A stretch of 64,000 bases of DNA from an uncultured Gammaproteobacteria bacterium (GTDB taxonomy: Bacteria > Patescibacteriota > Patescibacteriia > Magasanikbacterales > UBA922): assembly GCA_964566225.1 (NCBI GenBank), contig CAZMHV010000003.1:91151-155150 (forward strand), read 5' to 3'. Below the pieces are notes generated by a model. It was not told the DNA's origin. It did no database searches and saw only the letters and a list, made by a program, of their open reading frames with translations. Position numbers and translations under genes: made by a program. Of this stretch, positions 6,518-64,000 are shown piece by piece (within the stretch, counting starts at the first letter, position 1; each line of letters begins with the position of its first letter).

Positions 6518-6546
6518 TTGACAAAGTTGTCAAAAAGGAGTATAAT
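6518..6546 (+). promoter_or_regulatory. Consensus sigma70-type promoter (TTGACA-N17-TATAAT) with a palindromic -35 region, upstream of the island-A gene
   Basis: ttgacaaagttgtcaaaaaggagtataat. The sequence ttgacaa-ag-ttgtcaa is itself an inverted repeat. Confidence 0.5.
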
Positions 6547-6662
6547 GGCCTATTAAAATTCAAAATAGCCAAAAGAGTCTTGTGAGGAGTTTTTTGGGTG
6601 TTTTGGAGTGTTTAATTGTTTTCACCTTTTTTTCGCGAATGTGTTCGCGATGGAGTACTGAC

Positions 6663-7178
6663 ATGGGTTTTTTTCTCATGGTGCCGTTTTCGCTTTTCGG
6701 CATGGGCGTGGCGGTGGTTCTGGGCCTGGTTCTCTTGGCCTGGATTGGTGAGGCGGTGCTGACCGCCTTGATCTGGGCTTTCTCGATCGGGCTTGGCCTT
6801 GCGGGCTTGGTGTTTCTGTTTCGGTGGATTTACCGGGACAAAACGCCTTGGCATCTGCCGCAGGTCCAGCCTCCACCACCGTCTCCCCCGGAACCGTTTC
6901 CGCGAGTTCCTCGGGGCAGTTCACCCTCAATGGTCATCATCGAGGGGGTGCAGATTGTTGTGCAGTCAGGGGCGAATCTGCACATTCATTTGCATGCCGG
7001 CGGCGGGGAGGATCCACCAAACGTTCGTGTCGTCCCCTCACAGTCTCGTCCGGTTCGCCCGCAGGGTGAACCTGCGAAACCTTCGCCGAAAATCATCCCC
7101 CCACAGAACGGTCGTGGCCCCACCTTTGGGGACTGGAACGACCGCTATGGTGGGGGTGACGACGACGAAGACGACTGA
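6663..7178 (+). CDS. GC-rich hypothetical protein: two predicted TM helices, a Pro-rich middle (QPPPPSPPEPFP) and an acidic tail (GGGDDDEDD). Alternative in-frame starts lie at 6582 (GTG) and 6639.
   Basis: Long ORF with high third-position G/C in an AT-rich genome. A GGAG sits 7 nt before the 6663 ATG. Hydrophobic N-terminus GMGVAVVLGLVLLAWIGEAVLTALIWAFSIGLGLAGLVFLF. Confidence 0.5.
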   Translation: MGFFLMVPFSLFGMGVAVVLGLVLLAWIGEAVLTALIWAFSIGLGLAGLVFLFRWIYRDKTPWHLPQVQPPPPSPPEPFPRVPRGSSPSMVIIEGVQIVVQSGANLHIHLHAGGGEDPPNVRVVPSQSRPVRPQGEPAKPSPKIIPPQNGRGPTFGDWNDRYGGGDDDEDD

Positions 7179-7298
7179 GCTTCAACACCAAACGGCACGG
7201 GCAGCAGAGGTTTACGAAAACTCTTGCAGCTGCCCGTGCCGAGAAAGAAAAATAAACCCCCTCACAGTGGAATACTGGAGGGGATTTTTTATTTCATC

Positions 7299-7443
7299 GA
7301 GGAGAGAATTTGTACTTTTCTTTTTTGTTGGCTGCGGGATCGCTCTCATGAAGGTCCCTTCGCCCTGACGGGACTCGGGGGACCTTCATGTATTCGCTAA
7401 GTCCTCGCTCAACAAAAAAGAAAAGTACAAATTCTCTCCTCTC
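7299..7443. repeat. Nested palindromic element, copy 2. It has 32-bp perfect outer inverted repeats around a ~79-nt G+C-rich core that holds its own 12-bp inverted repeat.
   Basis: Outer arms gaggagagaatttgtacttttcttttttgttg and caacaaaaaagaaaagtacaaattctctcctc. Inner arms catgaaggtccc and gggaccttcatg. Shares TACTTTTCTTTTTT with copy 1. Lies between the convergent island-A gene and topA. Confidence 0.7.
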
Positions 7444-24941: not shown

Positions 24942-24967
24942 AAAAAATCGAGGAGATACATTTTCTT

Positions 24968-25048
24968 TGTAAACAAAAACCGCATCAGGATTCCTCCATT
25001 CTTGCAGAGTGAACAAATTCACTTTACAAGAATGGGCTGATGCGGTTT
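24968..25048. terminator. Long imperfect nested hairpin (~80 nt) at the guaB 3' end and the island-B boundary
   Basis: Outer 13-bp arms aaaaccgcatcag / ctgatgcggtttt. Inner near-perfect inverted repeat cattcttgcagagtgaa / ttcactttacaagaatg. Confidence 0.5.
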
Positions 25049-25129
25049 TTGAATACGCGCATGCCCGGCGTAGCAGCAGCGGGAATCTCCCGCCGCGCCG
25101 TGGGTGGTCGCCTGAGGCGACCGGTTGGC

Positions 25130-25399
25130 TCAGGCGGCCTTCGCGGCGATGGTGAGCGTCGGCTTCTGGGGCTTCGCGTACAGGCGCGTGCCCGCGTTGT
25201 TCGTGATGATCACGTTCAGGTTGTGATCCTTCGCGAACTCGGCCAGGCGAGTCCCCCCGTCGTGCGTGAGGGCCGTGTAGTGGTTGTCCCAGTTCGCCGG
25301 CTTGGGCAGCCCGATCCACTCATAGTCGAACACCAGGGCCGCGAGCTGTCGAGCATCCGGTCCGTTCACAATCACCGGGATCTTGCATGCAATGTTCAT
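25130..25399 (-). CDS. GC-rich small hypothetical protein (90 aa), possibly a gene fragment
   Basis: MNIACKIPVIVNGPDARQLAALVFDYEWIGLPKPANWDNHYTALTHDGGTRLAEF... A minus-strand promoter-like TTGATT-N16-TATACT lies ~60 nt upstream. Confidence 0.4.
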   Translation of the reverse strand: MNIACKIPVIVNGPDARQLAALVFDYEWIGLPKPANWDNHYTALTHDGGTRLAEFAKDHNLNVIITNNAGTRLYAKPQKPTLTIAAKAA

Positions 25400-25518
25400 T
25401 TTGTTCGCAGATCTTTCACTTACTTGGTTGACTTCACACGCATCTTGGATGCGCGCCGCTAGTATACTCTTTTCCCACAAAAAATCAAGGTTATTTGGCT
25501 TATTTATCCACAAAACAA

Positions 25519-46639: not shown

Positions 46640-46670
46640 AAACATCCACAACAAATGGATGTTTTTTCAA
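46640..46670. terminator. Bidirectional rho-independent terminator
   Basis: aaaaaacatccac-aacaa-atggatgtttttt. Confidence 0.6.
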
Positions 46671-46783
46671 CTCACCAGAAAAAGTATTTGTCTTGTAAGC
46701 TGACGGGACGTGGGGCAGCACGTCGCGAGTTGAAAGAACGAATTTCCCCTTTTCTGCCCAGGGGACGATGTGGTAGCCAGCCC

Positions 46784-47350
46784 TCAGCTGCCGATGATGT
46801 GCTCGCCGGGGTTGTCCCACCCCAGCCACACCAGGTCCCGCGCACTCGACAGGTCGCCACTGCTGAGCTCGCCGGCGTCCTGTCCCGGGTACATGGTCTG
46901 GATTTCGAAGACCCAGTGGCTTGTGTACCTCATCCTCAGCACCATGGTCATGAGGCTCGTCTTGGGGGCGAGCCGTCGACCGATGGGGAGGAAGAACGCG
47001 GTGGTCCGCTTGTTGAGCGGCTTGTACTCTCCGGCGTCGATGTCCTCCGCCGTGAGCTCGTACAGGGGGATGGTCGACGACCACCCTATGGCAGGGGGGC
47101 CGCCGAAGTCGAGCTGCAGTCGCACCGGCTTGTTGACGCTCGGCACGTTGACCAGCTTCTGGAGCTCCGCCACCAGCACCTGAGCCACCTCGGGGTCGCG
47201 AACGAAGTCGTCGAAGCAGCTCCACTCGGCGAAGTTCCCTGCCAGGGCCAACTTGCGACCGCGGAAGCAGGTTTCGGTGAGCCGCCTGCCCTGTTCGGCC
47301 GGCATGACCACCTCTACCTTCGATTTGTCCTCGAGTTCGAAAAACGGCAT
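46784..47350 (-). CDS. GC-rich hypothetical protein (188 aa)
   Basis: The minus-strand ORF has balanced amino-acid composition and G/C-ending codons. An AAAGGA RBS sits before the ATG. The opposite-strand ORF is Arg/Pro/Gly-rich antisense shadow. Confidence 0.5.
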   Translation of the reverse strand: MPFFELEDKSKVEVVMPAEQGRRLTETCFRGRKLALAGNFAEWSCFDDFVRDPEVAQVLVAELQKLVNVPSVNKPVRLQLDFGGPPAIGWSSTIPLYELTAEDIDAGEYKPLNKRTTAFFLPIGRRLAPKTSLMTMVLRMRYTSHWVFEIQTMYPGQDAGELSSGDLSSARDLVWLGWDNPGEHIIGS

Positions 47351-47472
47351 GTGCCGTCCTTTCTTCAGTGCCGGGACCGTTCCCGGTTTTTTTCTCCATT
47401 ATAGAGAGAGAAAAATCGGGAATGGTTACTACGGCAAAAAGATATCATCTTATATTATGTTTATGTATTTTT

Positions 47473-47507
47473 GTCAAGTGTTATATATTGTGGTATACTC
47501 TACTTGC
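47473..47507 (+). promoter_or_regulatory. Putative promoter TTGTCA-N17-TATACT (extended -10 TGg) for the gene at 47536
   Basis: ttgtcaagtgttatatattgtggtatact. Confidence 0.4.
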
Positions 47508-53358: not shown

Positions 53359-55170
53359 ATGCCTGCACACTATCTCAAACACGAGAATAGTCCCAAAAAT
53401 CCAATTGACGAAGATATTTGTCTCTTTGCTCAAACGCATTACCGCAATCAAATGCGTCGTTTTGGTATTAAACTTGATGATCGTAGACGTCACATGTATT
53501 TGGTGGGCAAAACCGGTATGGGAAAGTCTACGCTCATGGAAAACATGATGCTTCAAGATATTCAAAAAGGTTTTGGCATTGGGCTTGTGGATCCACATGG
53601 AGACTTAGCCGAAAAAATTATTGATTTTATTCCTGCAAATCGTATTAATGATGTTGTATACTTTAATCCAGCCGATACTGACTACCCAATTGGTTTTAAT
53701 ATTTTGGAAGTAAAGAACGAAGAACAAAAGCATCTGGTAGCCGCTGGTCTCATGGGCGTATTCAAAAAGATCTGGCCAGATGTGTGGAGTGCTCGTATGG
53801 AATATATTTTGAATAATACACTTTTAGCTTTACTCGAATATCCAGGTTCCACATTGCTCGGTATCAATCGTCTGTTATCAGACAAAAAATACCGCAACCG
53901 TGTGGTGCGTCAAGTAAAAGATCCTGTCATCAAATCATTTTGGCAAATTGAATTTGCCAGTTATAACGAACGGTATGCCCAAGAAGCGGTAGCCTCTATC
54001 CAAAATAAAATTGGACAATTTTTGTCTGCCAATGTGATTCGTAACATGGTGGCGCAGGTAAAATCTACGGTGGATGTGCGCAAAATCATGGATGAAGGAA
54101 AAATTCTTATCATGAACCTCAGTAAAGGAAGAATTGGTGAAGACAATAGTCGTCTGCTCGGTGGTATGCTTATCACCAAAATCCAGCTGGCAGCTATGGA
54201 ACGTGTGGATACTCCCGAAAAAGATCGTCGTGATTTCTTTTTGTATGTAGATGAATTTCAAAACTTTGCCACACCTTCTTTTGCTAACATTCTCTCAGAA
54301 GCGCGTAAGTATCGCCTGAGTCTTATTATGGCGCACCAATATATTGCCCAGCTTGACGAAGTTGTAGGGGATGCTGTATTTGGAAATGTGGGAACTATTG
54401 TGGCTTTTCGTGTTGGTGGAGCAGACTCAGAGATTTTGGCCAAAGAATTTGCCCCAATATTTCTCGAAGAAGACATTGTAAATTTGGCGAAATTCAACAT
54501 CATGCTCAAACTCATGATCAATGGTGTTGCCTCACAGCCATTTAGTGCTTTTTCTATGGGGCCGCTTGGATCACCGACTGGGAGTACAGAAAAAGTGATT
54601 CGTGTTTCTCGTGAACGATATGCCAAAAAACGCGAGATCATTGAAGAAAAAATTACTCGTTGGAGTGGACTCGGGCTTGGGGAAGATGATGGGGAAGGTG
54701 ATGATGATTTTGATGATGATGTTAATGATGCGCCTCCTACTTCGGCTGTGGCAACCAAATCTGCGGTTGTGGTTGCCAAGACACCTGTGCCTGTAAAATT
54801 GGGAGCACTTCCTACTCGTGATCATTTGGTTCGTAGTGGCAGTGGACAAAAATTAGATCCAAAGCCATTGTCAGAAATAAGTTTTGATACAGAACCTGAA
54901 AGCAAAGAACCCGATCAGACAGCTGTGGAGTCTCAACCAAATGAGCTACCATCAGTGGCTGTACCTTCAAATACTTTGAGGAGCGAACCTGGAACGGAAA
55001 AAAAGAAGAGAAAACGCAAACGCAAGAGAAAAAACAAAGGTGGCGGAGGTGGACAAGAGAGTATTGTGTCAGCAGCTTCTCTCCGTGCGGCTCAAGAAGA
55101 CCCCATTGAAATCAGTCCACCAGATGTGATAAGCTTTGATGATGATCCAGATCCACTTGAACTGATGTAA
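53359..55170 (+). CDS. P-loop ATPase of the HerA/FtsK/VirD4 (TraD-like coupling protein, DUF87/AAA_10-like) superfamily, with an acidic and Lys-rich C-terminal tail
   Basis: Walker A LVGKTGMGKST and Walker B FLYVDEFQNF. A long low-complexity tail ends EDDGEGDDDFDDD...KKKRKRKRKRKNKGGGGG. Confidence 0.6.
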   Translation: MPAHYLKHENSPKNPIDEDICLFAQTHYRNQMRRFGIKLDDRRRHMYLVGKTGMGKSTLMENMMLQDIQKGFGIGLVDPHGDLAEKIIDFIPANRINDVVYFNPADTDYPIGFNILEVKNEEQKHLVAAGLMGVFKKIWPDVWSARMEYILNNTLLALLEYPGSTLLGINRLLSDKKYRNRVVRQVKDPVIKSFWQIEFASYNERYAQEAVASIQNKIGQFLSANVIRNMVAQVKSTVDVRKIMDEGKILIMNLSKGRIGEDNSRLLGGMLITKIQLAAMERVDTPEKDRRDFFLYVDEFQNFATPSFANILSEARKYRLSLIMAHQYIAQLDEVVGDAVFGNVGTIVAFRVGGADSEILAKEFAPIFLEEDIVNLAKFNIMLKLMINGVASQPFSAFSMGPLGSPTGSTEKVIRVSRERYAKKREIIEEKITRWSGLGLGEDDGEGDDDFDDDVNDAPPTSAVATKSAVVVAKTPVPVKLGALPTRDHLVRSGSGQKLDPKPLSEISFDTEPESKEPDQTAVESQPNELPSVAVPSNTLRSEPGTEKKKRKRKRKRKNKGGGGGQESIVSAASLRAAQEDPIEISPPDVISFDDDPDPLELM

Positions 55171-55178
55171 TTTTTTGT

Positions 55179-57500
55179 GTGATTTTTCACCACAAACCCG
55201 CACAATTTATCCGGAGCATGCTGTTTGTTGTTTTGGGTGGGGGGACATTGTTCTTCCCACTTTTTGTGTTTCCCAAAACATTTGAAGTAGTGAACTTACC
55301 CAAGACATTTTTTTTGTTTCTGGTAGTTGGAGTACTCGTTCTTTTGTGGAGTATTGGTGCCATGCTTGAAAAAAAGTTATTGGTACGACGGAGCATGCTT
55401 GATATTCCTTTTGTACTTTTTGGAGTAGCCGTGCTTATCAGTAGTCTTTTTTCGGTATCAGTACCGGTGAGTTTTCTCGGGACTACCGATAACTTTACAC
55501 TGACTGCATTTACTATCTTTCCAGCAGTTCTTTTTGCATATCTCATTATTCAACTCATCAAAAACCGTACTTCGTTTGTCAACTTTATACAGATTTTCTT
55601 TTTGTCACATATTGTTGCTGAACTTTTGTTTTATGTCTTTCAAATTCCGTTTATAAGAAATCATGGACTTACTGATTGGTTTGGGCACAATTTTTTTAAC
55701 ACGGTAAGCACTGGCAATAGTATCTTTGGTATTTGGGTCGCTGCTTTGGGAGTACTCAGTTTTGGTACATTACTTTTGAAAGGAAGAAAAAAAATATATT
55801 ATATTTTGCCTGCAATTTCTGCGGTACTGTCACTTATTACGTTGTTTCGTCTTGGCTTTACTGTCTCGTTTGTGGTATTTGGTATTGGTCTTGGCATGCT
55901 GCTTATTTTGCCATTTTTATTTGCTCGGTCAACTTCGGTAAAGGTTTCTTTGGCACTTTTTTCAGTGTTTGTGCTCACACTGCTTTGTATTGGTTTTGGC
56001 ACTCCACAGTCATTCAAAATGCATGTCCCGGTAGAAATTGCTTTGGGAGCACAGAGTTCATTTGATTTTGTCAAAGCTGCACTTGGTGCTGATGTGAAGC
56101 AATTTTTGGTTGGAAGTGGTCCAGGAACTTTTTTGTATGATTTTTCTTTGCATCGCACTCCTGCTTTCAATACCAATGCGATTGTTTTTAATACTCGGTT
56201 TCATGCACCGTTTAGTACTTTTTTGGCCCTTCTTGTTGAGGTAGGGTTACTTGGTTCTGTCTTTTTTATTTTACTTATTCTTATTGGACTTGGCGCCATG
56301 CTCTCTACTTGGACAGAACTTCGATCTTCTTGGAAAGGATTGATTCAAGAACGAGTTGCTCCCACGCTTCATGCACAGGGATTTTCTTCCTTTGCTGAAA
56401 TTTTTGATGTGTTTGTGGTTGGTGCAGCCTGGATAGCTTTGACAGTGGGGCTCTTGGTGAGTTTTGTAGATATTGTGTCGTGGTGGACATGGTGGTGTTT
56501 TTTGGCGCTTATTATTGTAGGTATTGGTTTTGTAAACAAAAAATTTGTAGTTGAAAAAGATATTAGTTTGGTGGTTTCACCACAGTATTCATTGGCACTT
56601 TCGTTTGGTATTATTTTATTTTTTACACTTATTATTCTCTCGACTGCTTTTGGTGTACGCATGTACTTGGCCGAGTATTCTTGGGTCAAAGCATCACAGG
56701 TTTCTTCACTTGACGAGGCAGAAGCATATTTGCAGCGTTCTATTGAGTACCGTCGCAGTTATGCACCGTACCAAGTTTCATTGGCTCGTGTGTATTTGCA
56801 AAAAGCCAAAGTAGCATATGAAAAGAATAACCAAAATACTCCAGAGGTGGCCAGCTTAGTTGCGAGTGCTGCCAATGTCGCCAAAATTGCCACAGAACTT
56901 GAACCCAACAACGTAGAAAATTATGAAACTTTGGCACTCATGTATTTGAATGCACATTCGTTCGCTCCCGAGGCCAATACTTGGGCTAAAGATGCTTTGT
57001 TATCTGCGTTGCTGCTTGAACCAAGTAATGTTGTGAATCATACCCGGTTAGCACAGGTGTATATACAAGAAAACAAGTTGTCTGAAGCAGAAAAAGAATT
57101 GCAAAAAGCTATTGAACTTAAATTTGACTATGTACCTGCCTATGAAGCCTTGATTGTGCTGTATCGTGATGCCGGCAAATACAATGAAGCACTTGGGTTT
57201 TATGAAGCTTTGCTCAAAATTACTGACCCTACGGGTAATTTGCTGTTTAACTATGGGGTGCTCTTTTTCAACAGACACGAAAAAGGAGATGATGACCGCG
57301 CACAAAAATTGTGGGAGCAAGCTCTGAGGTTGGATGCAGAGAAAAAACAACCTACCAATCCAAATATTTTATATAGTCTGGGGCTGCTTTTTGAACGAAA
57401 AGGGGACAAGAGTACTGCTTTGTCGTATTATCAAAAAGTACGTGAATTGGTGCCACAAAATGATGATGTGAAGAAGAAGATACAGAGTATGTTGCGGTAG
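55179..57500 (+). CDS. O-antigen ligase (Wzy_C/WaaL-like) family polytopic membrane protein fused to C-terminal TPR repeats
   Basis: About 12 TM helices with a large loop, then a C-terminal repeated TPR-like region (AYLQRSIEYRRSYAPYQVSLARVYL..., ALGFYEALLKI..., ALSYYQKVREL). Confidence 0.65.
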   Translation: MIFHHKPAQFIRSMLFVVLGGGTLFFPLFVFPKTFEVVNLPKTFFLFLVVGVLVLLWSIGAMLEKKLLVRRSMLDIPFVLFGVAVLISSLFSVSVPVSFLGTTDNFTLTAFTIFPAVLFAYLIIQLIKNRTSFVNFIQIFFLSHIVAELLFYVFQIPFIRNHGLTDWFGHNFFNTVSTGNSIFGIWVAALGVLSFGTLLLKGRKKIYYILPAISAVLSLITLFRLGFTVSFVVFGIGLGMLLILPFLFARSTSVKVSLALFSVFVLTLLCIGFGTPQSFKMHVPVEIALGAQSSFDFVKAALGADVKQFLVGSGPGTFLYDFSLHRTPAFNTNAIVFNTRFHAPFSTFLALLVEVGLLGSVFFILLILIGLGAMLSTWTELRSSWKGLIQERVAPTLHAQGFSSFAEIFDVFVVGAAWIALTVGLLVSFVDIVSWWTWWCFLALIIVGIGFVNKKFVVEKDISLVVSPQYSLALSFGIILFFTLIILSTAFGVRMYLAEYSWVKASQVSSLDEAEAYLQRSIEYRRSYAPYQVSLARVYLQKAKVAYEKNNQNTPEVASLVASAANVAKIATELEPNNVENYETLALMYLNAHSFAPEANTWAKDALLSALLLEPSNVVNHTRLAQVYIQENKLSEAEKELQKAIELKFDYVPAYEALIVLYRDAGKYNEALGFYEALLKITDPTGNLLFNYGVLFFNRHEKGDDDRAQKLWEQALRLDAEKKQPTNPNILYSLGLLFERKGDKSTALSYYQKVRELVPQNDDVKKKIQSMLR

Positions 57501-57547
57501 GGAGTGAAAAAATAAACATGATGAAAATAATTTTGGTAAAAATAAAA

Positions 57548-57582
57548 TACCGACTGTACAAAACAATCGGTATTTTTTTCGC
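57548..57582. terminator. Rho-independent terminator
   Basis: ataccga-ctgtacaaaacaa-tcggtattttttt. Confidence 0.55.
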
Positions 57583-57710
57583 CCAAATAAAGATTCCTTC
57601 ACAAAGAAATATTTATTTGGACGGCCGGGGCGAGTGCACTGCAACGAAAGTTGCTGCGCACCCGCCCGGAGGGGTGAGTGAAGAATGGTGGCGGGGCGCC
57701 GGTGGGACGC

Positions 57711-58346
57711 TCAGCTCGGGAGGTCGATCTTGCCAACACCGAGCATTTCGTCTGTGAGGTGCTGCATGTGGAGCACCTGCCAAGTGTTCTGGACCATGGT
57801 CAGCTCCATGATGTGGCCGGGCAGGAGTGGATCCGGGGCGCTGTAGTTGGGAGTCAGATCCTGCAGCAGGGCATCGATGCGACCCGGGTGGGTGTAGACC
57901 ATGATGGTGACGCCGGGCCTGAATTGGCCCAGGTGAGCACGGACGGCTTGGGCTGACCTCATTCCAAATTCCCATACATCATGTCGATAGTATGCCTTCC
58001 TCGCGATCATGTAGACTTCGGGAGTGACTCCCTCGGCTTGCGCTTGAATCTCATCGATGTTCATCCCCGCCGGAGGTGGGCACAGGTTGAAATTCGTGAG
58101 TTCTTGGGCCGTGATCAGCTTTGCTTGACTGCCTCCAATTTCGTTGTACACCATGATTGCCTGCGCAACCATTTTGGGATCTTGCGAGCACAGGATGCTG
58201 TTGATCTGAATCCCCGCGTTGCGCAGGGCGGCGGCTCGTTCCATGAGCCGTCGCTTTTCTGTGATGTCGGGCTTACGATCGTGCCCGCACACGAAGAAAA
58301 AGCGCGACTGGGAAGAGGGGAAGAAAGGGCAGAGTTTGAGAGGCAT
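57711..58346 (-). CDS. GC-rich hypothetical protein (211 aa), start taken at MPLKLCPFF
   Basis: Strong RBS AGGAGA plus a 7-nt spacer before the ATG. N-terminal segment RFFFVCGHDRKPD. High third-position G/C. No confident domain call. Confidence 0.5.
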   Translation of the reverse strand: MPLKLCPFFPSSQSRFFFVCGHDRKPDITEKRRLMERAAALRNAGIQINSILCSQDPKMVAQAIMVYNEIGGSQAKLITAQELTNFNLCPPPAGMNIDEIQAQAEGVTPEVYMIARKAYYRHDVWEFGMRSAQAVRAHLGQFRPGVTIMVYTHPGRIDALLQDLTPNYSAPDPLLPGHIMELTMVQNTWQVLHMQHLTDEMLGVGKIDLPS

Positions 58347-58399
58347 TTGTTTTCTCCTGGTCGGTAGAGTAAGACAGAACGGCACCATTGCCGGCTCCT

Positions 58400-58460
58400 C
58401 CTCGTATAGGTAGGTAGCTTTCTACCATGGAATACTCCATTGTACAAAGCTACCCACCTG
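58400..58460. promoter_or_regulatory. Operator-like nested palindrome upstream of the island-D gene
   Basis: gtagctttctac-catggaatactccattg-gtacaaagctac has 12-bp arms with one mismatch, plus an inner catgga/tccat(t/g) inverted repeat. Coordinates are +/-1. Confidence 0.35.
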
Positions 58461-58658
58461 GCCATTCATTCTTTTTGAATTGTAAAAAACTCACTCGTAT
58501 GGTCAATAAAAAACGCTGTATAGAGCATTTTTTATTATTTTTTTCCATAATGCCGAAGTATAGCAGAAATTTGGGATTTGTCAAGGTATTGAAAATGTGA
58601 GAAGAATAGTATACGATAGGTTTAAATTTGGCTAATTACAGAAAAAATCTTAGCTACT

Positions 58659-60206
58659 GTGAAAAATAATTTCATAACTATGGAACCAAAATACTTTCAA
58701 GATGAAGATGCCTGGATGCTCGGTGAAGATATCCCAAATGCTGATTTATTTTTTTCCAATATTTGGCTGAATGGTTTTGTGAGTTTTTTTGATAAAAATG
58801 TTGGCAAGGCGTACAAAAAGATTTTGTGTAAGTATGAAGGGTATCACTTGTGGTTTTATTTTGGTGAAAAAGATTCTTTTGAAGTAGCCGAATATATTGC
58901 CGAGCGAATTGTTCATGAAGCAGGCTATGCGGCTGAGGTGAATAAAAATATTATGCTTGAAGCAGACAAGCTTCGAAATTTTAGTGAAACGATTCCTCAA
59001 ACCAATCTTGACTCTCTCCCCAATGAAGAATTGTGGAGAATTTATGAAACACACAATACTATTCATAGTGAGTACTATACTTGGTGTTGGATTCCTGTGG
59101 CAGTGGACATGTTTCACAACAACTTAACCAAAAGAGTAAAAGAATACTTGCTTTCCCTCGGTGTTTCAGCAGAAAATCTCAATGAATATTTTATTACACT
59201 CACTCAACCCACAGAAAAATCTCTTATTTTTATTGAGCAAGAAGATTTACTCAAAATTGTGCAGGAGGTCCAAAAAGATGTTGAGGCAGTTGAATTGTTC
59301 AAAACAGAATCTCTACAAAATATTTTTGAGAGGCTTTCTTTACCTTTACAAAACCTCATTACTGAACATTGGAAAAAGTATTATTACACCAAGCATTTAT
59401 GGGTGAGTGGAGAGTATACCGTTGAAGAGTATTTGCATCAAATCAAAGATGTTCTCCTGAGTGCAGAGTCTGCTACTATAATTTTGGCAAAACAATATCA
59501 AGAACTCGAAAAAGCGAAACAAAAGAGACTCGCACTTATTGAACAGTTACACATTGAAGGCCAATGGCGAACGGTTCTCGATGAATTCGGGGCATTTATG
59601 GTGACCAAAATTTATCGTCGCTATGCACAGCTTTTGGCTGTTCATCACATGTCACCAATTTTGAAAGAAATAGCGAGACGAAAATTTTTGACCGAAAAAC
59701 AAGTTCGTTTTTTGCGAGTTCCTGAAGTGAAAGAATTATTGCTGAATGATAACTACAGTGAGCAAGAGTTACTCGAGCGTACCAAAATGTGTGTGTACTA
59801 TGCAGAAAAGAATTTTGAACATGTAATGATTCGTGAAGAGGCAAGTGAATATATGAAATCTGTAGAAAAAGAAATTGATACCAGCATTACCGAGCTTCGT
59901 GGTGAAAGTGCATGTATTGGTTATGCCAAGGGCGTGGTGAAAATTATTATTCGTGCCGAAGATATGCAAAAAATGAACGAGGGAGATATTCTTGTTTCTA
60001 TTGCCACTGACCCAGATATTGTTCCTGCCATGAAAAAGGCTGCTGGAATTGTAACTGAGCAAGGTGGTGTCACTTCCCATGCTGCGATTGTTTCACGCGA
60101 GTTAGGGATTCCTTGTGTGATTGGTACTAAAATTGCAACAAAAATTTTAAAGGATGGGGATGTTGTGGAAGTGGATGCAACGAAAGGTATTATTAAAAAA
60201 ATATAA
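58659..60206 (+). CDS. Protein with a large unknown N-terminal domain and a C-terminal PEP-utilizing-enzyme mobile (phosphohistidine swivel) domain
   Basis: C-terminal GDILVSIATDPDIVPAMKKAAGIVTEQGGVTSHAAIVSRELGIPCVIGTK matches the swivel-His consensus of PPDK, PEP synthase and rifampin phosphotransferase. GTG start. Confidence 0.7.
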   Translation: MKNNFITMEPKYFQDEDAWMLGEDIPNADLFFSNIWLNGFVSFFDKNVGKAYKKILCKYEGYHLWFYFGEKDSFEVAEYIAERIVHEAGYAAEVNKNIMLEADKLRNFSETIPQTNLDSLPNEELWRIYETHNTIHSEYYTWCWIPVAVDMFHNNLTKRVKEYLLSLGVSAENLNEYFITLTQPTEKSLIFIEQEDLLKIVQEVQKDVEAVELFKTESLQNIFERLSLPLQNLITEHWKKYYYTKHLWVSGEYTVEEYLHQIKDVLLSAESATIILAKQYQELEKAKQKRLALIEQLHIEGQWRTVLDEFGAFMVTKIYRRYAQLLAVHHMSPILKEIARRKFLTEKQVRFLRVPEVKELLLNDNYSEQELLERTKMCVYYAEKNFEHVMIREEASEYMKSVEKEIDTSITELRGESACIGYAKGVVKIIIRAEDMQKMNEGDILVSIATDPDIVPAMKKAAGIVTEQGGVTSHAAIVSRELGIPCVIGTKIATKILKDGDVVEVDATKGIIKKI

Positions 60207-60233
60207 TTATACTTACAATATACGTATTTCTGT

Positions 60234-61304
60234 ATGACAAAAAAATACGACACGCACCGACGTGAATATACTATCCTTGGTATCACGGCTGTCATCGAAG
60301 CCATGGTGAGTGATATTACACACAAAGTTTATCAGGGTACCTTTCCTGAATTGTTTTCTCTTGTCGTTGATGGTGTGTATTATCACTCTCTGCCTGTGAC
60401 CGGTCGAGAACAGGCAAGTCGGTTGGTGGTGAAGAGTTTTCAAGAGAAGTCCATTGACTTGTCTGCCATGTATGAAATTTTTGATGCAGAAGTGACCAAG
60501 TATGAACAGCTTATCGATCTTCCCGAAGAACAGTTTTCCTTACAGACCATTTTAGACTTTTTTTCTTTTTATAAAGAATTATTTCCGACCGCGTATGTAG
60601 GAATGGATCCAATTGATTTCACTGATACTTTATCTCCGCAAGAAAAAGAAGAATTTTTTGACTGGGCTACCAAAATTCGTCATCGTGGTGAAGTTATTTA
60701 CAAAAGAGGAGAAATGGAATTTATTCCACGCTATTTGGCTTGGTTTGCCAAACATCACGCTTCTCTGTATCGTGTAGATCACTTACTCTACTTAGTGTGT
60801 ACTGAAATGGAAAATTTTGTGCAGAAAAATGCACCACTTCCAACACCTGAGGAACTTGAACAAAGAAAAAAAGTGTTGTATGTCCATCAATATCCACCTG
60901 GTAAGATTGAATTTTATTTTGGTGAGCAAGCTCAAAAAATGATTGATCAAAAAGAATTTTTTAAAAAAGAAGTTGACCACACCGTAAATGAAGTAAAAGG
61001 TCAAGTTGGTTACCGAGGAATTGTCACTGGAAAAGTATGTATTGTCACCAGTCGTGCTGACATGAATAAATTTCAAGACGGTGATATTATTGTTTCCGAA
61101 ATGACTGATCCGAGTTATTTGCCAATTATGAAACGAGCGCTTGCGTTTGTGACTGACGAAGGTGGAATGCTCTGTCATGCTGCCATTGTGGCTCGCGAGT
61201 TGCAAAAGCCTTGTGTGATTGGAACCAAACATGCTACAAAGGTTTTTCATGATGGTGACATGATCGAAGTGAATGCAGAGCAGGGGACGGTGAAAAAAAT
61301 ATAA
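60234..61304 (+). CDS. Paralog of the preceding gene: a shorter unknown N-terminal domain plus a C-terminal PEP-utilizing-enzyme mobile (phosphohistidine) domain
   Basis: C-terminal GDIIVSEMTDPSYLPIMKRALAFVTDEGGMLCHAAIVARELQKPCVIGTK. Confidence 0.7.
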   Translation: MTKKYDTHRREYTILGITAVIEAMVSDITHKVYQGTFPELFSLVVDGVYYHSLPVTGREQASRLVVKSFQEKSIDLSAMYEIFDAEVTKYEQLIDLPEEQFSLQTILDFFSFYKELFPTAYVGMDPIDFTDTLSPQEKEEFFDWATKIRHRGEVIYKRGEMEFIPRYLAWFAKHHASLYRVDHLLYLVCTEMENFVQKNAPLPTPEELEQRKKVLYVHQYPPGKIEFYFGEQAQKMIDQKEFFKKEVDHTVNEVKGQVGYRGIVTGKVCIVTSRADMNKFQDGDIIVSEMTDPSYLPIMKRALAFVTDEGGMLCHAAIVARELQKPCVIGTKHATKVFHDGDMIEVNAEQGTVKKI

Positions 61305-61459
61305 ATAAAAAGAATCCCAGTGATATGGGATTCTTTTTCCAAATGAAGATTCTTGTTTGAAAAATATTCATGTGGCGGAACCGACGGGCATACACATGAC
61401 TTGGAAGTCACGGCATGCGCGTCGGCGACGCGGTTCGTTCGGCTTGGCCGAGAGAGGGC

Positions 61460-62071
61460 TCAGTTGCTCGAGGTCACCGAGCCGTCGGCCGGGTTGAAAA
61501 CCTGGTAGGACAGCTCCTGCATGTCCGACACCACGAGTGCGCCGGAGGGCAGGTCATCCATGTAGTCTTCTTTGAGTACGAGGAAATCGTTGAGCCCGGG
61601 CTCGATGCTGCCCCCGTGGAAGACTACCAAGAGCAGTTCGGTGAGTTCGTCCGTGTCGCGCTCATCGAGCACCTTCGTGACCCGTCGAGCCACTGAGTCG
61701 AAGGGCTCGACACCCTCGGGCAGGGCGGACTGGTCTGCCCACCACTTGATGAACCCCTGGCCGTAGGGCGGAATGCCCTTCTCGGCGTCGCCCTTGGCGA
61801 TGGCGCCGACCCCGCCAGCCGGGTTGAGGCGGGCGTCGGGGTCGTGGACGTTGACCGTGAGGCCCCCCTCCACCAAGATGGCCTGGTATCGGGCGCCGCT
61901 CTCGATCGCCCGGGGCTCCTTGCTGGTCACCAGGTTGATGGTCCTGATGTCCTCGGATCGGCACCGCTTGAGCAGCCAGCGGGCGCTGACGTCGACCTCC
62001 TCCTTGCCGAGAGGGGTGAGCACGTTGTCCTTGTGGGCGCCGTGGCGCGCGGTGGCGACGAAGTTTCCCAT
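61460..62071 (-). CDS. GC-rich histidine phosphatase superfamily protein (phosphoglycerate-mutase-like branch)
   Basis: N-terminal RHG catalytic motif MGNFVATARHGAHKDNVLTPLGKEE. Strong RBS AGGAGA-N7-ATG. High third-position G/C. Confidence 0.6.
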   Translation of the reverse strand: MGNFVATARHGAHKDNVLTPLGKEEVDVSARWLLKRCRSEDIRTINLVTSKEPRAIESGARYQAILVEGGLTVNVHDPDARLNPAGGVGAIAKGDAEKGIPPYGQGFIKWWADQSALPEGVEPFDSVARRVTKVLDERDTDELTELLLVVFHGGSIEPGLNDFLVLKEDYMDDLPSGALVVSDMQELSYQVFNPADGSVTSSN

Positions 62072-62362
62072 GATGGGATCTCCTTGGCAAGGGACGGAGT
62101 AGTTGATTGGCCCGTCCACGATTGCTCACCAGGTAAAATTATTTTTACAGGGTGAGCAACTGTGGACCAGGCTTTTCTCTCAGGTTAATAAGCCAAATTG
62201 TAACGAACCGCAGTATGGTTATTTATAAAAAATCGCTAAAATAAGCAATTTTTATACAACTTTTACCATAACGGTAGAGTGTATCAAAAAATGTTGCTTT
62301 TGTCAATGTATTTGCTGTATACTAAGCCATATAACTGACTGAACTTTTTAATCATTCTGACT

Positions 62363-63346
62363 ATGCCACACCTCAAATTTTTCAAAGAAATCAACAAAGA
62401 CGACGTTGCTATTGCCGGTGGCAAAGGCGCGTCTCTTGGTGAAATGTCTCAAGCCGGAATTCCCGTCCCACCTGGCTGTGTTGTTTTGGCCAATGCCTTT
62501 GATCGGTTCATTGAAGAAACAGAACTCAAAGAAGAAATTGCCGCGCGTATCAAAGAGGTGAATCCTGAAGATACTGCGACCATTGATCGTGCGAGTAAAA
62601 TCCTTCGTGATGTTATCAACGACACTCCGATGCCAGAAGACCTCACCCAAGAAATCCTAGCCGCCTTCGACGAACTGAGCGCCGACCACGTCGCCGTTCG
62701 CTCCAGTGCTACTGCCGAAGATTCATCGATTGCCAGTTGGGCAGGAGAACTTGAAACCTACTTGAACACAACTCGTGACAATGTCATTGAACGCGTCAAA
62801 CACTGTTGGTCATCGCTCTTCACTCCACGTGCGATTTTTTATCGCTATGAAAAAAATTTGCACGACAGTTATGTGTCAGTAGCAGTAGTGATTCAAAAAA
62901 TGGTTCAGTCCGAAATTTCTGGTGTGGCATTTACGGTTCACCCCGTGACCGAAGACCCCAATCAAATGATTCTGGAAGCTGGTTATGGACTCGGAGAGGC
63001 GATTGTGAGTGGGCAAGTGACGCCAGATAGTTACATTATTAGTAAAACAGATATGATGATCATGGATATTCACATTGGTCATCAGAATAAAAAGTTAGTG
63101 CGTGCGCATGCTGAAGCCGAAAAGCAGGGGACACCAGACGAAGAGAACACGAAAAATATGTGGATTGACCTGCATCAAGAAGAAGGGGAAAAACAAAAAC
63201 TTACTGGCAGACAAATTATTGAGCTGGCCACCCTCTGCAAACGTATTGAGGATCACTATGGATTTCCTTGTGATATTGAATGGGCTTTTGAACAAGGCAA
63301 ATTTTACATTACGCAAAGTCGACCTATCACTACCCTCAAAAAATAA
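62363..63346 (+). CDS. Stand-alone PEP/pyruvate-binding ATP-grasp domain protein (PPDK_N, as in the N-terminal ATP-binding domain of PEP synthase and rifampin phosphotransferase)
   Basis: N-terminal VAIAGGKGASLGEMSQAGIPVPPGCVVLANAF and later VAVRSSATAEDSSIASWAGE. No swivel or TIM-barrel domains are attached. Confidence 0.75.
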   Translation: MPHLKFFKEINKDDVAIAGGKGASLGEMSQAGIPVPPGCVVLANAFDRFIEETELKEEIAARIKEVNPEDTATIDRASKILRDVINDTPMPEDLTQEILAAFDELSADHVAVRSSATAEDSSIASWAGELETYLNTTRDNVIERVKHCWSSLFTPRAIFYRYEKNLHDSYVSVAVVIQKMVQSEISGVAFTVHPVTEDPNQMILEAGYGLGEAIVSGQVTPDSYIISKTDMMIMDIHIGHQNKKLVRAHAEAEKQGTPDEENTKNMWIDLHQEEGEKQKLTGRQIIELATLCKRIEDHYGFPCDIEWAFEQGKFYITQSRPITTLKK

Positions 63347-63398
63347 CTCAAAAACACGGCCAAAACCTCTCTTTATACACATATTTTCCATTTTTCCT

Positions 63399-63427
63399 TG
63401 ACACCCTTTTTGAAACCCTATACACTA
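63399..63427 (+). promoter_or_regulatory. Putative ftsZ promoter TTGACA-N17-TACACT
   Basis: ttgacaccctttttgaaaccctatacact. Confidence 0.4.
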
Positions 63428-63442
63428 TAGGGGACTGTATTT

Positions 63443-63486
63443 ATTGAACAAAAAAACGCTGAATATCGAATAATTTTTTTGTTCAA
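63443..63486 (+). promoter_or_regulatory. 13-bp perfect inverted repeat (A/U-only stem) in the ftsZ 5' leader
   Basis: ttgaacaaaaaaa-cgctgaatatcgaataa-tttttttgttcaa, ending ~17 nt before the ftsZ ATG. Confidence 0.45.
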
Positions 63487-63502
63487 TCACAATTTCTCCT
63501 CT

Positions 63503-64000
63503 ATGCCTGAAGTAAAACCTCAAATTGAAACCTTTGCCAAAATTAAAGTAGTCGGTGTTGGTGGTTCTGGTGGATCTGCTGTTGACCGCATGGTAAAGAA
63601 TGGTATTCGTGGTGTTGATTTTATTGCCATGAATACGGATGTTCAGGCATTGCATCACAATAGTGCTCCACACAAACTTCATATTGGTAAGGCTGTGACT
63701 CGTGGACTTGGTGCTGGTATGGATCCAGAAGTAGGTAAGCGCGCTGCCGAAGAATCACAAAACGAAATTCGTGAAATGCTCAAAGACGCAGATATGGTTT
63801 TTGTTACCTGTGGACTTGGTGGTGGTACTGGTTCAGGTGCGAGTCCAGTGATTGCCGAAATTGCCAAAGACTTGGGGGCGCTTACTGTGGCTGTGGTTAC
63901 CAAACCATTTTCATTTGAAGGACCTCAACGCAAAAAAGTGGGTGAAAAAGCCTACAATGATTTGGCCAAACATGTTGATACTATTATTACGATTCCCAAT
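63503..64000 (+). CDS. ftsZ: Cell division GTPase FtsZ (N-terminal part; the 3' end lies beyond the window)
   Basis: [30 protein letters not shown]...[23 protein letters not shown] matches the tubulin signature GGGTGSG. Confidence 0.9.

Follow-up and report, generated by a model that had tools for sequence, protein, structure and literature searches.

Does a GC-rich gene that stands alone in AT-rich DNA, behind a long palindrome, mark a foreign acquisition under the control of its own repressor? The question is raised by a 64,000-nucleotide stretch of DNA (the window) from a patescibacterium of the order Magasanikbacterales, namely positions 91,151 to 155,150 of contig CAZMHV010000003.1. Five GC-rich islets with sharp edges, islands A to E, interrupt a sequence whose mean GC content is 41%. 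Island D (57559-58431) has 56% GC and holds a minus-strand open reading frame (ORF) of 211 amino acids, MPLKLCPFFPSS..., here called gene D. The original prediction, made by reading the sequence alone, described this ORF as an orphan with a strong ribosome-binding site (RBS), preceded by an operator-like palindrome. We find that island D holds a true protein-coding gene, with a conserved control region dedicated to it, and that it is neither an assembly chimera nor a recent foreign insertion. The palindrome is better read as a putative long RNA stem-loop in the 5' leader than as an operator. On balance, we favour an explanation in which island D would be the GC-rich core of a self-contained, vertically inherited, hairpin-capped transcription unit, paralogous with a unit at island E, and in which the long stems act on the mRNA.

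The coding nature of gene D emerges from its composition, its length and its conservation. GC content at the first, second and third codon positions (GC1, GC2 and GC3) amounts to 0.60/0.40/0.71, against about 0.5/0.3/0.33 in the flanking genes. The stop-free stretch covers 236 codons; composition-matched shuffles give a mean of 116 (standard deviation 29), and only 9 in 2000 reach 225. Exhaustive HMMER searching of 1.84 billion representative proteins yielded one true homolog, P0003 (the product of D'): an intact protein of 215 residues, 53% identical to D, encoded on contig L001 from another sample. The two genes differ most at the third codon position, then the first, then the second; all insertions and deletions in the coding sequence (CDS) are multiples of 3, and the nonsynonymous rate divided by the synonymous one (dN/dS) is 0.45. 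The codon-position pattern, the ORF length relative to shuffles and the frame-keeping ortholog together establish gene D as a real coding gene. An in-frame ATG further upstream, at 58388, would give a version of 225 residues. We dropped it as the start: its equivalent in L001 is out of frame, and protein conservation begins near the start of the 211-residue form. The GC-rich minus-strand ORF, its strong RBS and the coding periodicity on which the original prediction had staked itself (GC3 > GC1 > GC2) all stand. The AGGAGA element is present, and the seven-nucleotide spacing first given is right if the core is taken as AGGAG; otherwise it is 6 nt.

The junctions of the island are equally supported: Logan contig L002 (run SRR16481187), an independent assembly, is 100% identical to window positions 56509-64000 and spans islands D and E with their junctions. 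In L001, P0003 is flanked on one side by an ortholog of the tetratricopeptide repeat (TPR) gene that neighbours D (79.5% amino acid identity) and on the other by the same leader; the island there has 59% GC. Backbone synonymous sites between the window and this relative are saturated. An island that is syntenic and equally GC-rich at such a distance does not fit the idea of foreign DNA that the word island had carried. Other searches for relatives of D returned nothing of the kind. A k-mer search of 5.8 billion clusters recovered D itself only; none were found in plasmids, phages or viral contigs, nor by protein-pattern scans of genome and metagenome contigs; NCBIfam and PADLOC scans were empty, and the window contains no second copy of the D CDS. 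The second HMMER match, P0004, is a coiled-coil false positive, and the four loci picked up with a leader DNA pattern (L005-L008) were chance matches when rescanned with a hidden Markov model (HMM) of the leader. We found no description of such islands in the literature.

A paralogous unit lies close by. Island E (61332-62189; 61-66% GC, GC3 0.89) is 3 kb from D. Its leader contains, in order, TTGACA-17-TACACT, TTATGG, TAAAAATTGCT-N6-AGCGATTTTT, TTACAATT, a long hairpin, a small GC hairpin and AGGAGA; downstream come a GC-rich ORF, a GC-rich 3' hairpin, an AU-rich hairpin and a bidirectional terminator. Within the window, HMMs of the leader and the trailer match at D and E only. Used as a single sequence, the D leader has the E leader as its best non-self match (E-value 0.006), and the D trailer likewise leads to the E trailer (E-value 0.05); these matches are colinear and on the same strand. 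Orthologs of the E protein are P0005 on contig L003 (E'; 65% amino acid identity) and P0006 on contig L004 (E''; 55%), the latter adjoining the same PPDK_N, FtsZ and NrdR genes. Searches outside this lineage, among them those of viral contigs, plasmids and phages, recovered no relative of E. To judge by these alignments, D and E are sister (paralogous) modules with homologous flanks. Since the AT-rich leader and trailer belong to the duplicated unit, the GC boundary lies inside the unit and not at its edge. Gene D looks like an orphan because its non-coding shell outlasts its CDS: homology can be recovered from the untranslated regions (UTRs), not from the protein.

The palindrome upstream of gene D is real, although it had been parsed differently: the two 12-mers and the 'second small palindrome' between them are the outer and apical parts of a single hairpin, and the letters first given contained one g too many. 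If arms must span 18 nt or more and pair at 84% or more, the 64 kb holds four hairpins, one at D, one at E and two at island B, and 20 locally shuffled windows hold none. As RNA, the 5' UTR of D folds with z = -5.6, and the 5' UTRs of all five module copies (D, D', E, E' and E'') form a long stem, with z between -2.9 and -5.6. The E hairpin, with 25-nt arms and a 4-nt loop, equals that of D in size and position and is unrelated to it in sequence; an analog is also found in E' and E''.

Changes within this hairpin are those expected of paired RNA. Between D and D' we see one double change from A-T to G-C and three one-sided changes that leave G-T pairs, while the outer 14 bp are almost invariant. 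In the E family variation is confined to the 5' arm, where it mostly yields T-G or G-T, and the 3' arm is invariant. Counted by hand within families, because a five-way MAFFT alignment of the hairpin is out of register between them, 9 cells hold G-T (G.U on the sense strand) and 3 hold A-C (G.U on the antisense strand). Folding of the sense strand beats that of the antisense strand in stability in three of the five copies, and equals it in one. A shape kept mainly through sense-strand G.U changes, plus one compensatory pair, fits an mRNA structure rather than an operator. So does its location. Being downstream of both predicted promoters, P1 and P2, the hairpin would fall in the transcribed leader and not over a promoter, about 15 to 70 nt from the P2 start and about 90 to 145 nt from the P1 start, as placed by the promoter scan. 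We also considered the hairpin as an intrinsic terminator or attenuator and rejected this, as no U-tract follows the stem: CCUAUACGAGGAGG comes next.

The proposed unit would extend over about 1.05 kb, roughly 57544-58600 on the minus strand. Two sigma70-type promoters in AT-rich DNA would produce a leader with a 24-bp RNA stem-loop, followed by a small GC hairpin and the Shine-Dalgarno sequence, the 211-codon ORF, and a 3' UTR with two tandem stem-loops of about 20 bp and a bidirectional terminator. In D, D' and E alike, the 3' UTR folds into two tandem stems of about 20 bp, with z from -5.6 to -6.8 (-6.8 for D). The GC-rich one has a counterpart of different sequence in L001 and E; the AU-rich one is homologous to the E and L001 trailers. 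Mostly continuous double-stranded RNA of at least about 20 bp, conserved in shape, is thus present in all copies examined, once at the 5' end (24-25 bp) and twice at the 3' end (about 20 bp each). The long stems would most likely act on the mRNA, setting transcript stability as putative exonuclease barriers or RNase III-type processing sites, while the coding segment would evolve much faster than the UTR shell, its GC held by selection or by GC-biased conversion.

Stem-loops in 5' UTRs that set the fate of an mRNA include leaders processed by RNase III (E. coli rnc and pnp) and 5' stabilisers (ompA; B. subtilis aprE and ermC). D and E resemble them in their long imperfect stem of at least about 20 bp, near the predicted 5' end and upstream of the Shine-Dalgarno sequence, with a conserved shape; they combine it with 3' stem-loops that would block 3' exonucleases. 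In contrast to typical 5' stabilisers, however, the stems of D and E (24-25 bp) are longer, and in the E family the 3' arm is invariant in sequence. The promoters, RBS and terminators are ordinary parts. What is unusual is that both mRNA ends carry very long stems of which only the shape is conserved, that the non-coding shell is better conserved than the protein, and that a single gene forms a GC plateau that resists amelioration.

Coordinates of the D and E modules and of neighbouring genes, in window numbering.
Feature	Position	Strand	Description
Promoter P1	58557-58584	minus	faces gene D; TTGACA-16-(TG)TATACT, 11/12 consensus match (promoter scan)
Short inverted repeat	58505-58536	minus	TAAAAAWTGCT-N6-AGCGWTTTTT, between P1 and P2
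Promoter P2	58479-58506	minus	TTGACC-16-TACAAT, 10/12 consensus match (promoter scan)
Long 5' UTR hairpin (the palindrome)	58408-58459	minus	24-nt arms, 88% complementarity, 4-nt loop
Small GC hairpin	58380-58393	minus	CGGCA-AUGG-UGCCG, inside conserved block GAGGAGGAGCCGGCAATGGTGCCGTTYTGTCT
Shine-Dalgarno sequence	58353-58358	minus	AGGAGA, 6 nt ahead of the ATG at 58346; read directly from the sequence
Gene D	57711-58346	minus	211 amino acids, GC-rich, lineage-restricted
GC-rich 3' stem-loop	57625-57669	minus	about 20 bp, UUUC loop (RNA fold)
AU-rich 3' stem-loop	57580-57623	minus	20-nt arms, directly after the GC-rich stem-loop
Intrinsic terminator	57544-57576		bidirectional, common to gene D and the convergent TPR gene (55179-57500)
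Module E	61307-62306	minus	includes two 3' hairpins
Module E, P1	62278-62306	minus	
Module E, long hairpin	62114-62167	minus	
Module E, CDS	61460-62071	minus	
Module E, terminator	61307-61338		
Swivel-domain proteins (two)	58659-60206; 60234-61304		C-terminal swivel phospho-His domain; separate from the PPDK_N protein
PPDK_N ATP-grasp protein	62363-63346		E-value 1e-102

Several shorter elements of the leader are conserved in sequence. The -35 and extended -10 boxes of P1 and the -10 block of P2, GTT..TTACAATT, are invariant in all five module copies. The short inverted repeat between the promoters is likewise conserved in all five leaders (62225-62256 in E, and on L001, L003 and L004), with one compensatory A-T<->T-A switch and a constant U.G (T-G) pair in the five-way leader alignment; a TTATGG block is invariant there as well, alongside the -35, the -10, the inverted repeat and TTACAATT. 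This 10+10 repeat could be a weak terminator or attenuator for P1 transcripts, or a protein-binding site; for any sequence-specific regulatory site it is a better candidate than the palindrome with 24-nt arms. Closer to the gene, the block GAGGAGGAGCCGGCAATGGTGCCGTTYTGTCT is almost identical in L001, though the adjoining CDS is only about 62% identical. What had been proposed as dedicated transcriptional control of the gene is thus upheld as far as a conserved promoter and leader region is concerned, and is not supported in its repressor-operator part.

Two further observations concern this region. At 58578-58617 divergent promoters stand back to back: only 4 nt separate the P1 -35 (TGTCAA on the plus strand) from a TTGAAA-17-TACGAT promoter on the plus strand, oriented towards the phosphoenolpyruvate (PEP)-utilizer gene. 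This layout is conserved in L001. The E-family leaders also contain a mini-ORF of five codons, ATG GTN AAA RTT GTR TAA (MVK[VI]V and a stop), that starts at the invariant TTATGG (62249-62266, minus strand, in the window; 38-55 in L003; 3764-3781 in L004). A conserved leader peptide as a module-wide feature was rejected: the peptide is kept in the E family only, and the D-family frame is not.

The contrast between shell and coding segment is best measured in E. The window and L003 come from close relatives, as the PEP2 gene beside E is 95.8% identical in amino acids (dN 0.018, dS 0.205). The leader and trailer of E are 93-100% identical between them, and the E CDS 65-80% per 60-nt window, or about 74% overall (159 mismatches in 612 nt, 65% amino acid identity), with dN 0.26 and dS 0.49. 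The drop is sharp: it starts at 62109, 5 nt past the 5' hairpin, and stops at the stop codon, after which the 3' UTR shows 4 differences in 155 nt. E, E' and E'' are nearly equidistant (57-65% amino acid identity) despite eight-fold differences in backbone dS, as would be expected if lineages had exchanged old alleles or if the local rate were much higher.

Composition sets the coding segments apart too. GC3 reaches 0.71 in D, 0.74 in D' and 0.89-0.93 in the E family, against 0.33 in backbone genes. A simple model of neutral relaxation, run at the backbone synonymous rate, caps present GC3 at 0.59 in D and at 0.54 in E versus E'', and does so even when the ancestor is given a GC3 of 1.0. Exchanges G<->C make up 52-69% of synonymous third-position differences in the E family and 4-12% in backbone genes. 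Polarised on the E and E' branches, third-position changes between strong (S; G or C) and weak (W; A or T) bases number 32 S>S, 10 S>W and 4 W>S. A GC3 above the neutral bound and a spectrum dominated by G<->C indicate that GC is maintained, not passively inherited from a donor. Selection on composition or GC-biased conversion would then be the active cause. A pool of foreign donors is unlikely, since replacement between conserved flanks needs donors that share those flanks, and no outside homologs were found.

Mouse Fxy is an example of GC-biased gene conversion at hot regions of recombination. D and E are alike in their sharp local rise of GC3, in their accelerated dN and dS, and in a synonymous spectrum depleted of S>W changes. 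In bacteria, however, the reported effect of such conversion is a few percent GC across genes (Lassalle et al. 2015, PMC4450053; for selection on GC, see Hildebrand et al. 2010, PMC2936529), whereas here a single gene of about 0.7 kb stands 40-55 GC3 points above its genome. The only sign of recombination at the locus is tree incongruence among three sequences.

What the proteins do is approached through E, a member of branch 1 of the histidine phosphatases (PF00300; SixA, CobC, PhoE, dPGM). It matches His_Phos_1 above the cut-off (E-value 2e-8; its orthologs, about 1e-6) and carries the motifs RHG, S-x3-R-A (SKEPRA) and a C-terminal H-G-G; against PDB, the E family reaches CobC at an E-value of about 1 only. 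Gene D gives a signal below the gathering threshold (11.7 bits, cut-off 21.7; E-value 0.2), colinear over 165 of the 194 model positions, and P0003 gives no match to PF00300. In hhalign, the D and E families align colinearly with E-values of 0.04-0.06, a score reached by 7 of 200 column shuffles; the alignment pairs ILCSQDP with LVTSKEPRA and VYTHPGRID with VVFHGGSIE, that is, the Ser after β2 and the His after β3. BLASTP is not significant. In addition to its colinearity with the model, D keeps the S after β2 and T-H-x-G after β3, with a compatible predicted order of β-α-β elements. It differs at the catalytic positions. Where E has RHG, D reads FFFVCGHD and P0003 FFIVCGLD (CGH and CGL), with neither Arg nor His in register; the second phosphate-binding Arg of SKEPRA is K in D (SQDPKM) and Q in P0003 (SEDPQH). 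The canonical phospho-His mechanism would be impossible with such substitutions. The C-terminal core His is present in both, as VYTHPGRID in D and VCTHEGRID in P0003, aligned to VVFHGGSIE of E.

The VCGHD segment had been taken as a hint of a hydrolase or phosphatase-like active site. The motif is there, yet its His is Leu in the ortholog (VCGLD) and a role as the active site is not supported; the superfamily link itself is plausible, through paralog E and the weak colinear signals of D. To the statement that no family could be assigned by eye we can add the sub-threshold PF00300 signal only. Two AlphaFold2 runs on D gave low confidence (predicted local distance difference test scores of 47 and 53.5), and a PDB profile search with the D family produced noise only; fold searches were uninformative. 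In our judgement D is probably a paralog of E that has diverged very far and degenerated catalytically, which is the most economical reading given the homologous shells of the two modules. D would have lost the nucleophile His and the Arg after β2, keeping only the C-terminal His, and would serve as a binding or regulatory partner, not as a canonical phosphatase.

How do other explanations fare? Control at the DNA level, with the palindrome as the operator of a dedicated dimeric repressor that acts, for example, as a roadblock downstream of the promoters, accounts for an inverted repeat far above chance that sits between promoters and start codon; some sequence constraint is implied by its outer 14 bp, nearly invariant when D is compared with L001, and by the 3' arm, which does not vary within the E family. 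We nevertheless consider it improbable. Arms of 24-25 bp around a 4-nt loop far exceed the length of a repressor half-site, and the repeat, downstream of both promoters, neither overlaps nor abuts P1 or P2. D and E share promoter and leader motifs, yet their hairpin sequences are wholly different, and the G-T changes that are mismatches in a DNA palindrome are valid pairs in RNA. No second copy of an arm exists in the 64 kb: exact matches are the two arms themselves, and matches with two mismatches occur at about chance level. A palindrome both unique and unconserved had been named as a ground for refutation; its arms are unique in the window, and the hairpin shape is kept in L001. Nor is there an adjacent regulator gene: the neighbours of island D are TPR/O-antigen-ligase-like and PEP-utilizer genes without a DNA-binding domain. 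Highly improbable is the idea that the ORF is a by-product of GC-richness, in a segment that would be either a structured non-coding RNA or an assembly chimera. In AT-rich genomes, structured RNAs classically show up as GC-rich blocks between genes; the UTRs are strongly structured, and long antisense ORFs also occur in island D. Against this stand GC3 > GC1 > GC2, the excess of third-position differences over positions 1 and 2, an ortholog that keeps the frame with indels in multiples of 3, and an RBS at the right spacing. Rfam shows nothing at the gathering threshold and nothing relevant at E-values up to 1; the independent assembly is identical at both junctions, and synteny is the same in a second sample.

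A single-gene cassette from a high-GC donor, mobile or gained by horizontal transfer, with hairpins that serve as attC-like or IS200/IS605/PATE-like sites of single-stranded DNA recombination or transposition, would explain the sharp compositional edge with long imperfect hairpins near both edges, the two module copies within 4 kb, the several other GC-rich single-gene islets of the window, and a star-like tree of E alleles that conflicts with backbone distances. It is quite unlikely all the same, as the module keeps its locus and orientation in a relative with saturated backbone dS, the GC edge is not the edge of the duplicated unit, and the database searches for D returned only the syntenic ortholog, with none in plasmids, phages or viral contigs, no E relatives outside the lineage and no second CDS copy in the window. 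GC3 lies above the bound for neutral amelioration, few changes are S>W, the wobble pattern points to RNA, and no recombinase was noted beside the module among the genes examined. Integron attC cassettes and IS200/IS605 elements are comparable as single-gene units with imperfect bounding hairpins in more than one copy; D and E differ from them in forming no array, in showing no integrase or TnpA, in having hairpin sequences that are not common to the copies and hairpins that lie inside a unit with its own promoters, and in a position that is syntenic across species. An unlikely but conceivable alternative is local GC-biased diversification of hairpin-bounded coding segments, which would make D and E an undescribed type of locus; the candidate processes are a hot spot of recombination or gene conversion, targeted repair, or hypermutation. 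If true, a GC3 equilibrium of 0.7-0.9 would be held in a genome with GC3 0.33, the protein would diverge about ten-fold faster than its promoter and UTR shell, and the process would yield apparent orphans, islets A, B and C being further products. Diversity-generating retroelements are common in lineages of the candidate phyla radiation, and D and E recall them through a hypervariable coding segment in a conserved context. Such an element is unlikely here: the 64 kb contains no repeat of the CDS that could be a template, the differences span the whole CDS, and the polarised changes, counted at third positions and without a tabulation of adenine-specificity, are mostly G<->C instead of the adenine-directed pattern that such an element would leave. 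Nor was a reverse transcriptase noted close to the module.

The favoured hairpin-capped unit, acting through its mRNA, has points against it as well. P1 and P2 are predicted features, as are the ends of the transcript and any processing of the RNA. With 9 cells against 3, wobble pairs speak moderately for the sense strand, and in E the antisense fold is slightly more stable than the sense fold. The invariant 3' arm of the E family may mean that this arm is also read sequence-specifically, by a protein or by alternative pairing. As five module copies are known, the comparative statistics rest on two to three sequences per family. The raised dS between E and E' could reflect allele exchange rather than a higher rate, and the contrast between D and D' is modest: nucleotide identity is about 62% in the CDS, about 75% in the TPR gene and 71-78% in the leader.

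For annotation, the lesson is that a long palindrome upstream of a start codon is often better taken for a stem of leader RNA than for an operator. A compositional island need not be recent foreign DNA: here one gene has stayed GC-rich over saturating divergence. Together with a synonymous spectrum dominated by G<->C, this is direct evidence that a non-mutational force acts on GC content at single-gene scale. In bacteria, loci of this kind are an unusually clean natural experiment in which selection can be set against GC-biased conversion.

The gene neighbourhood gives a further indication of function. Both D and E have, in divergent orientation beside them, genes of a split dikinase resembling PEP synthase and rifampicin phosphotransferase (58659-63346), and the two His_Phos-like genes are interspersed among those of the dikinase. 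The first swivel-domain gene, 58659-60206, is divergent from D; it has an N-terminal domain of unknown function and is 23% identical to its counterpart at 1-663 of L001, against 80% for the TPR gene on the other side of D; the substrate domain of the dikinase seems to be hypervariable too. From gene position, D and E may have a role in dikinase phosphotransfer. An intact and a degenerate histidine-phosphatase-like protein, together with a split and fast-evolving dikinase, suggest an uncharacterised phosphotransfer system, possibly with a role in conflict or adaptation.

Two genes upstream of island D lies a TraG/VirD4/TraD-like type IV coupling ATPase (53359-55170) with a long acidic/basic low-complexity tail. 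The three other islets each have a promoter and an ORF without an assigned family. In island A (6616-7290), a perfect TTGACA-17-TATAAT promoter (about 6519-6547) precedes an ORF, from an ATG at 6665 to 7178, for a membrane protein with a Pro-rich tail and no Pfam match; a GC-rich 3' hairpin comes after it. Past the island, a perfect inverted repeat of 32 bp (7303-7334 / 7411-7442) surrounds a second, inner palindrome. Island C (46660-47427; 60% GC) has a minus-strand ORF of 188 amino acids (46784-47350) with no Pfam or PADLOC match, a TTGACA promoter of its own near 47476 and, in both UTRs, small GC hairpins; it lacks the leader of D and E. Island B (24965-25461, minus strand) has a TTGATT-17-TATACT promoter, an ORF of 88 amino acids (25398 down to 25132) of no family, and a GC hairpin. 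It also contains a nested long hairpin, with 20-nt outer arms at 24969-24988 / 25037-25056 and 18-nt inner arms within 24996-25035, and its 3' layout resembles that of D and E.

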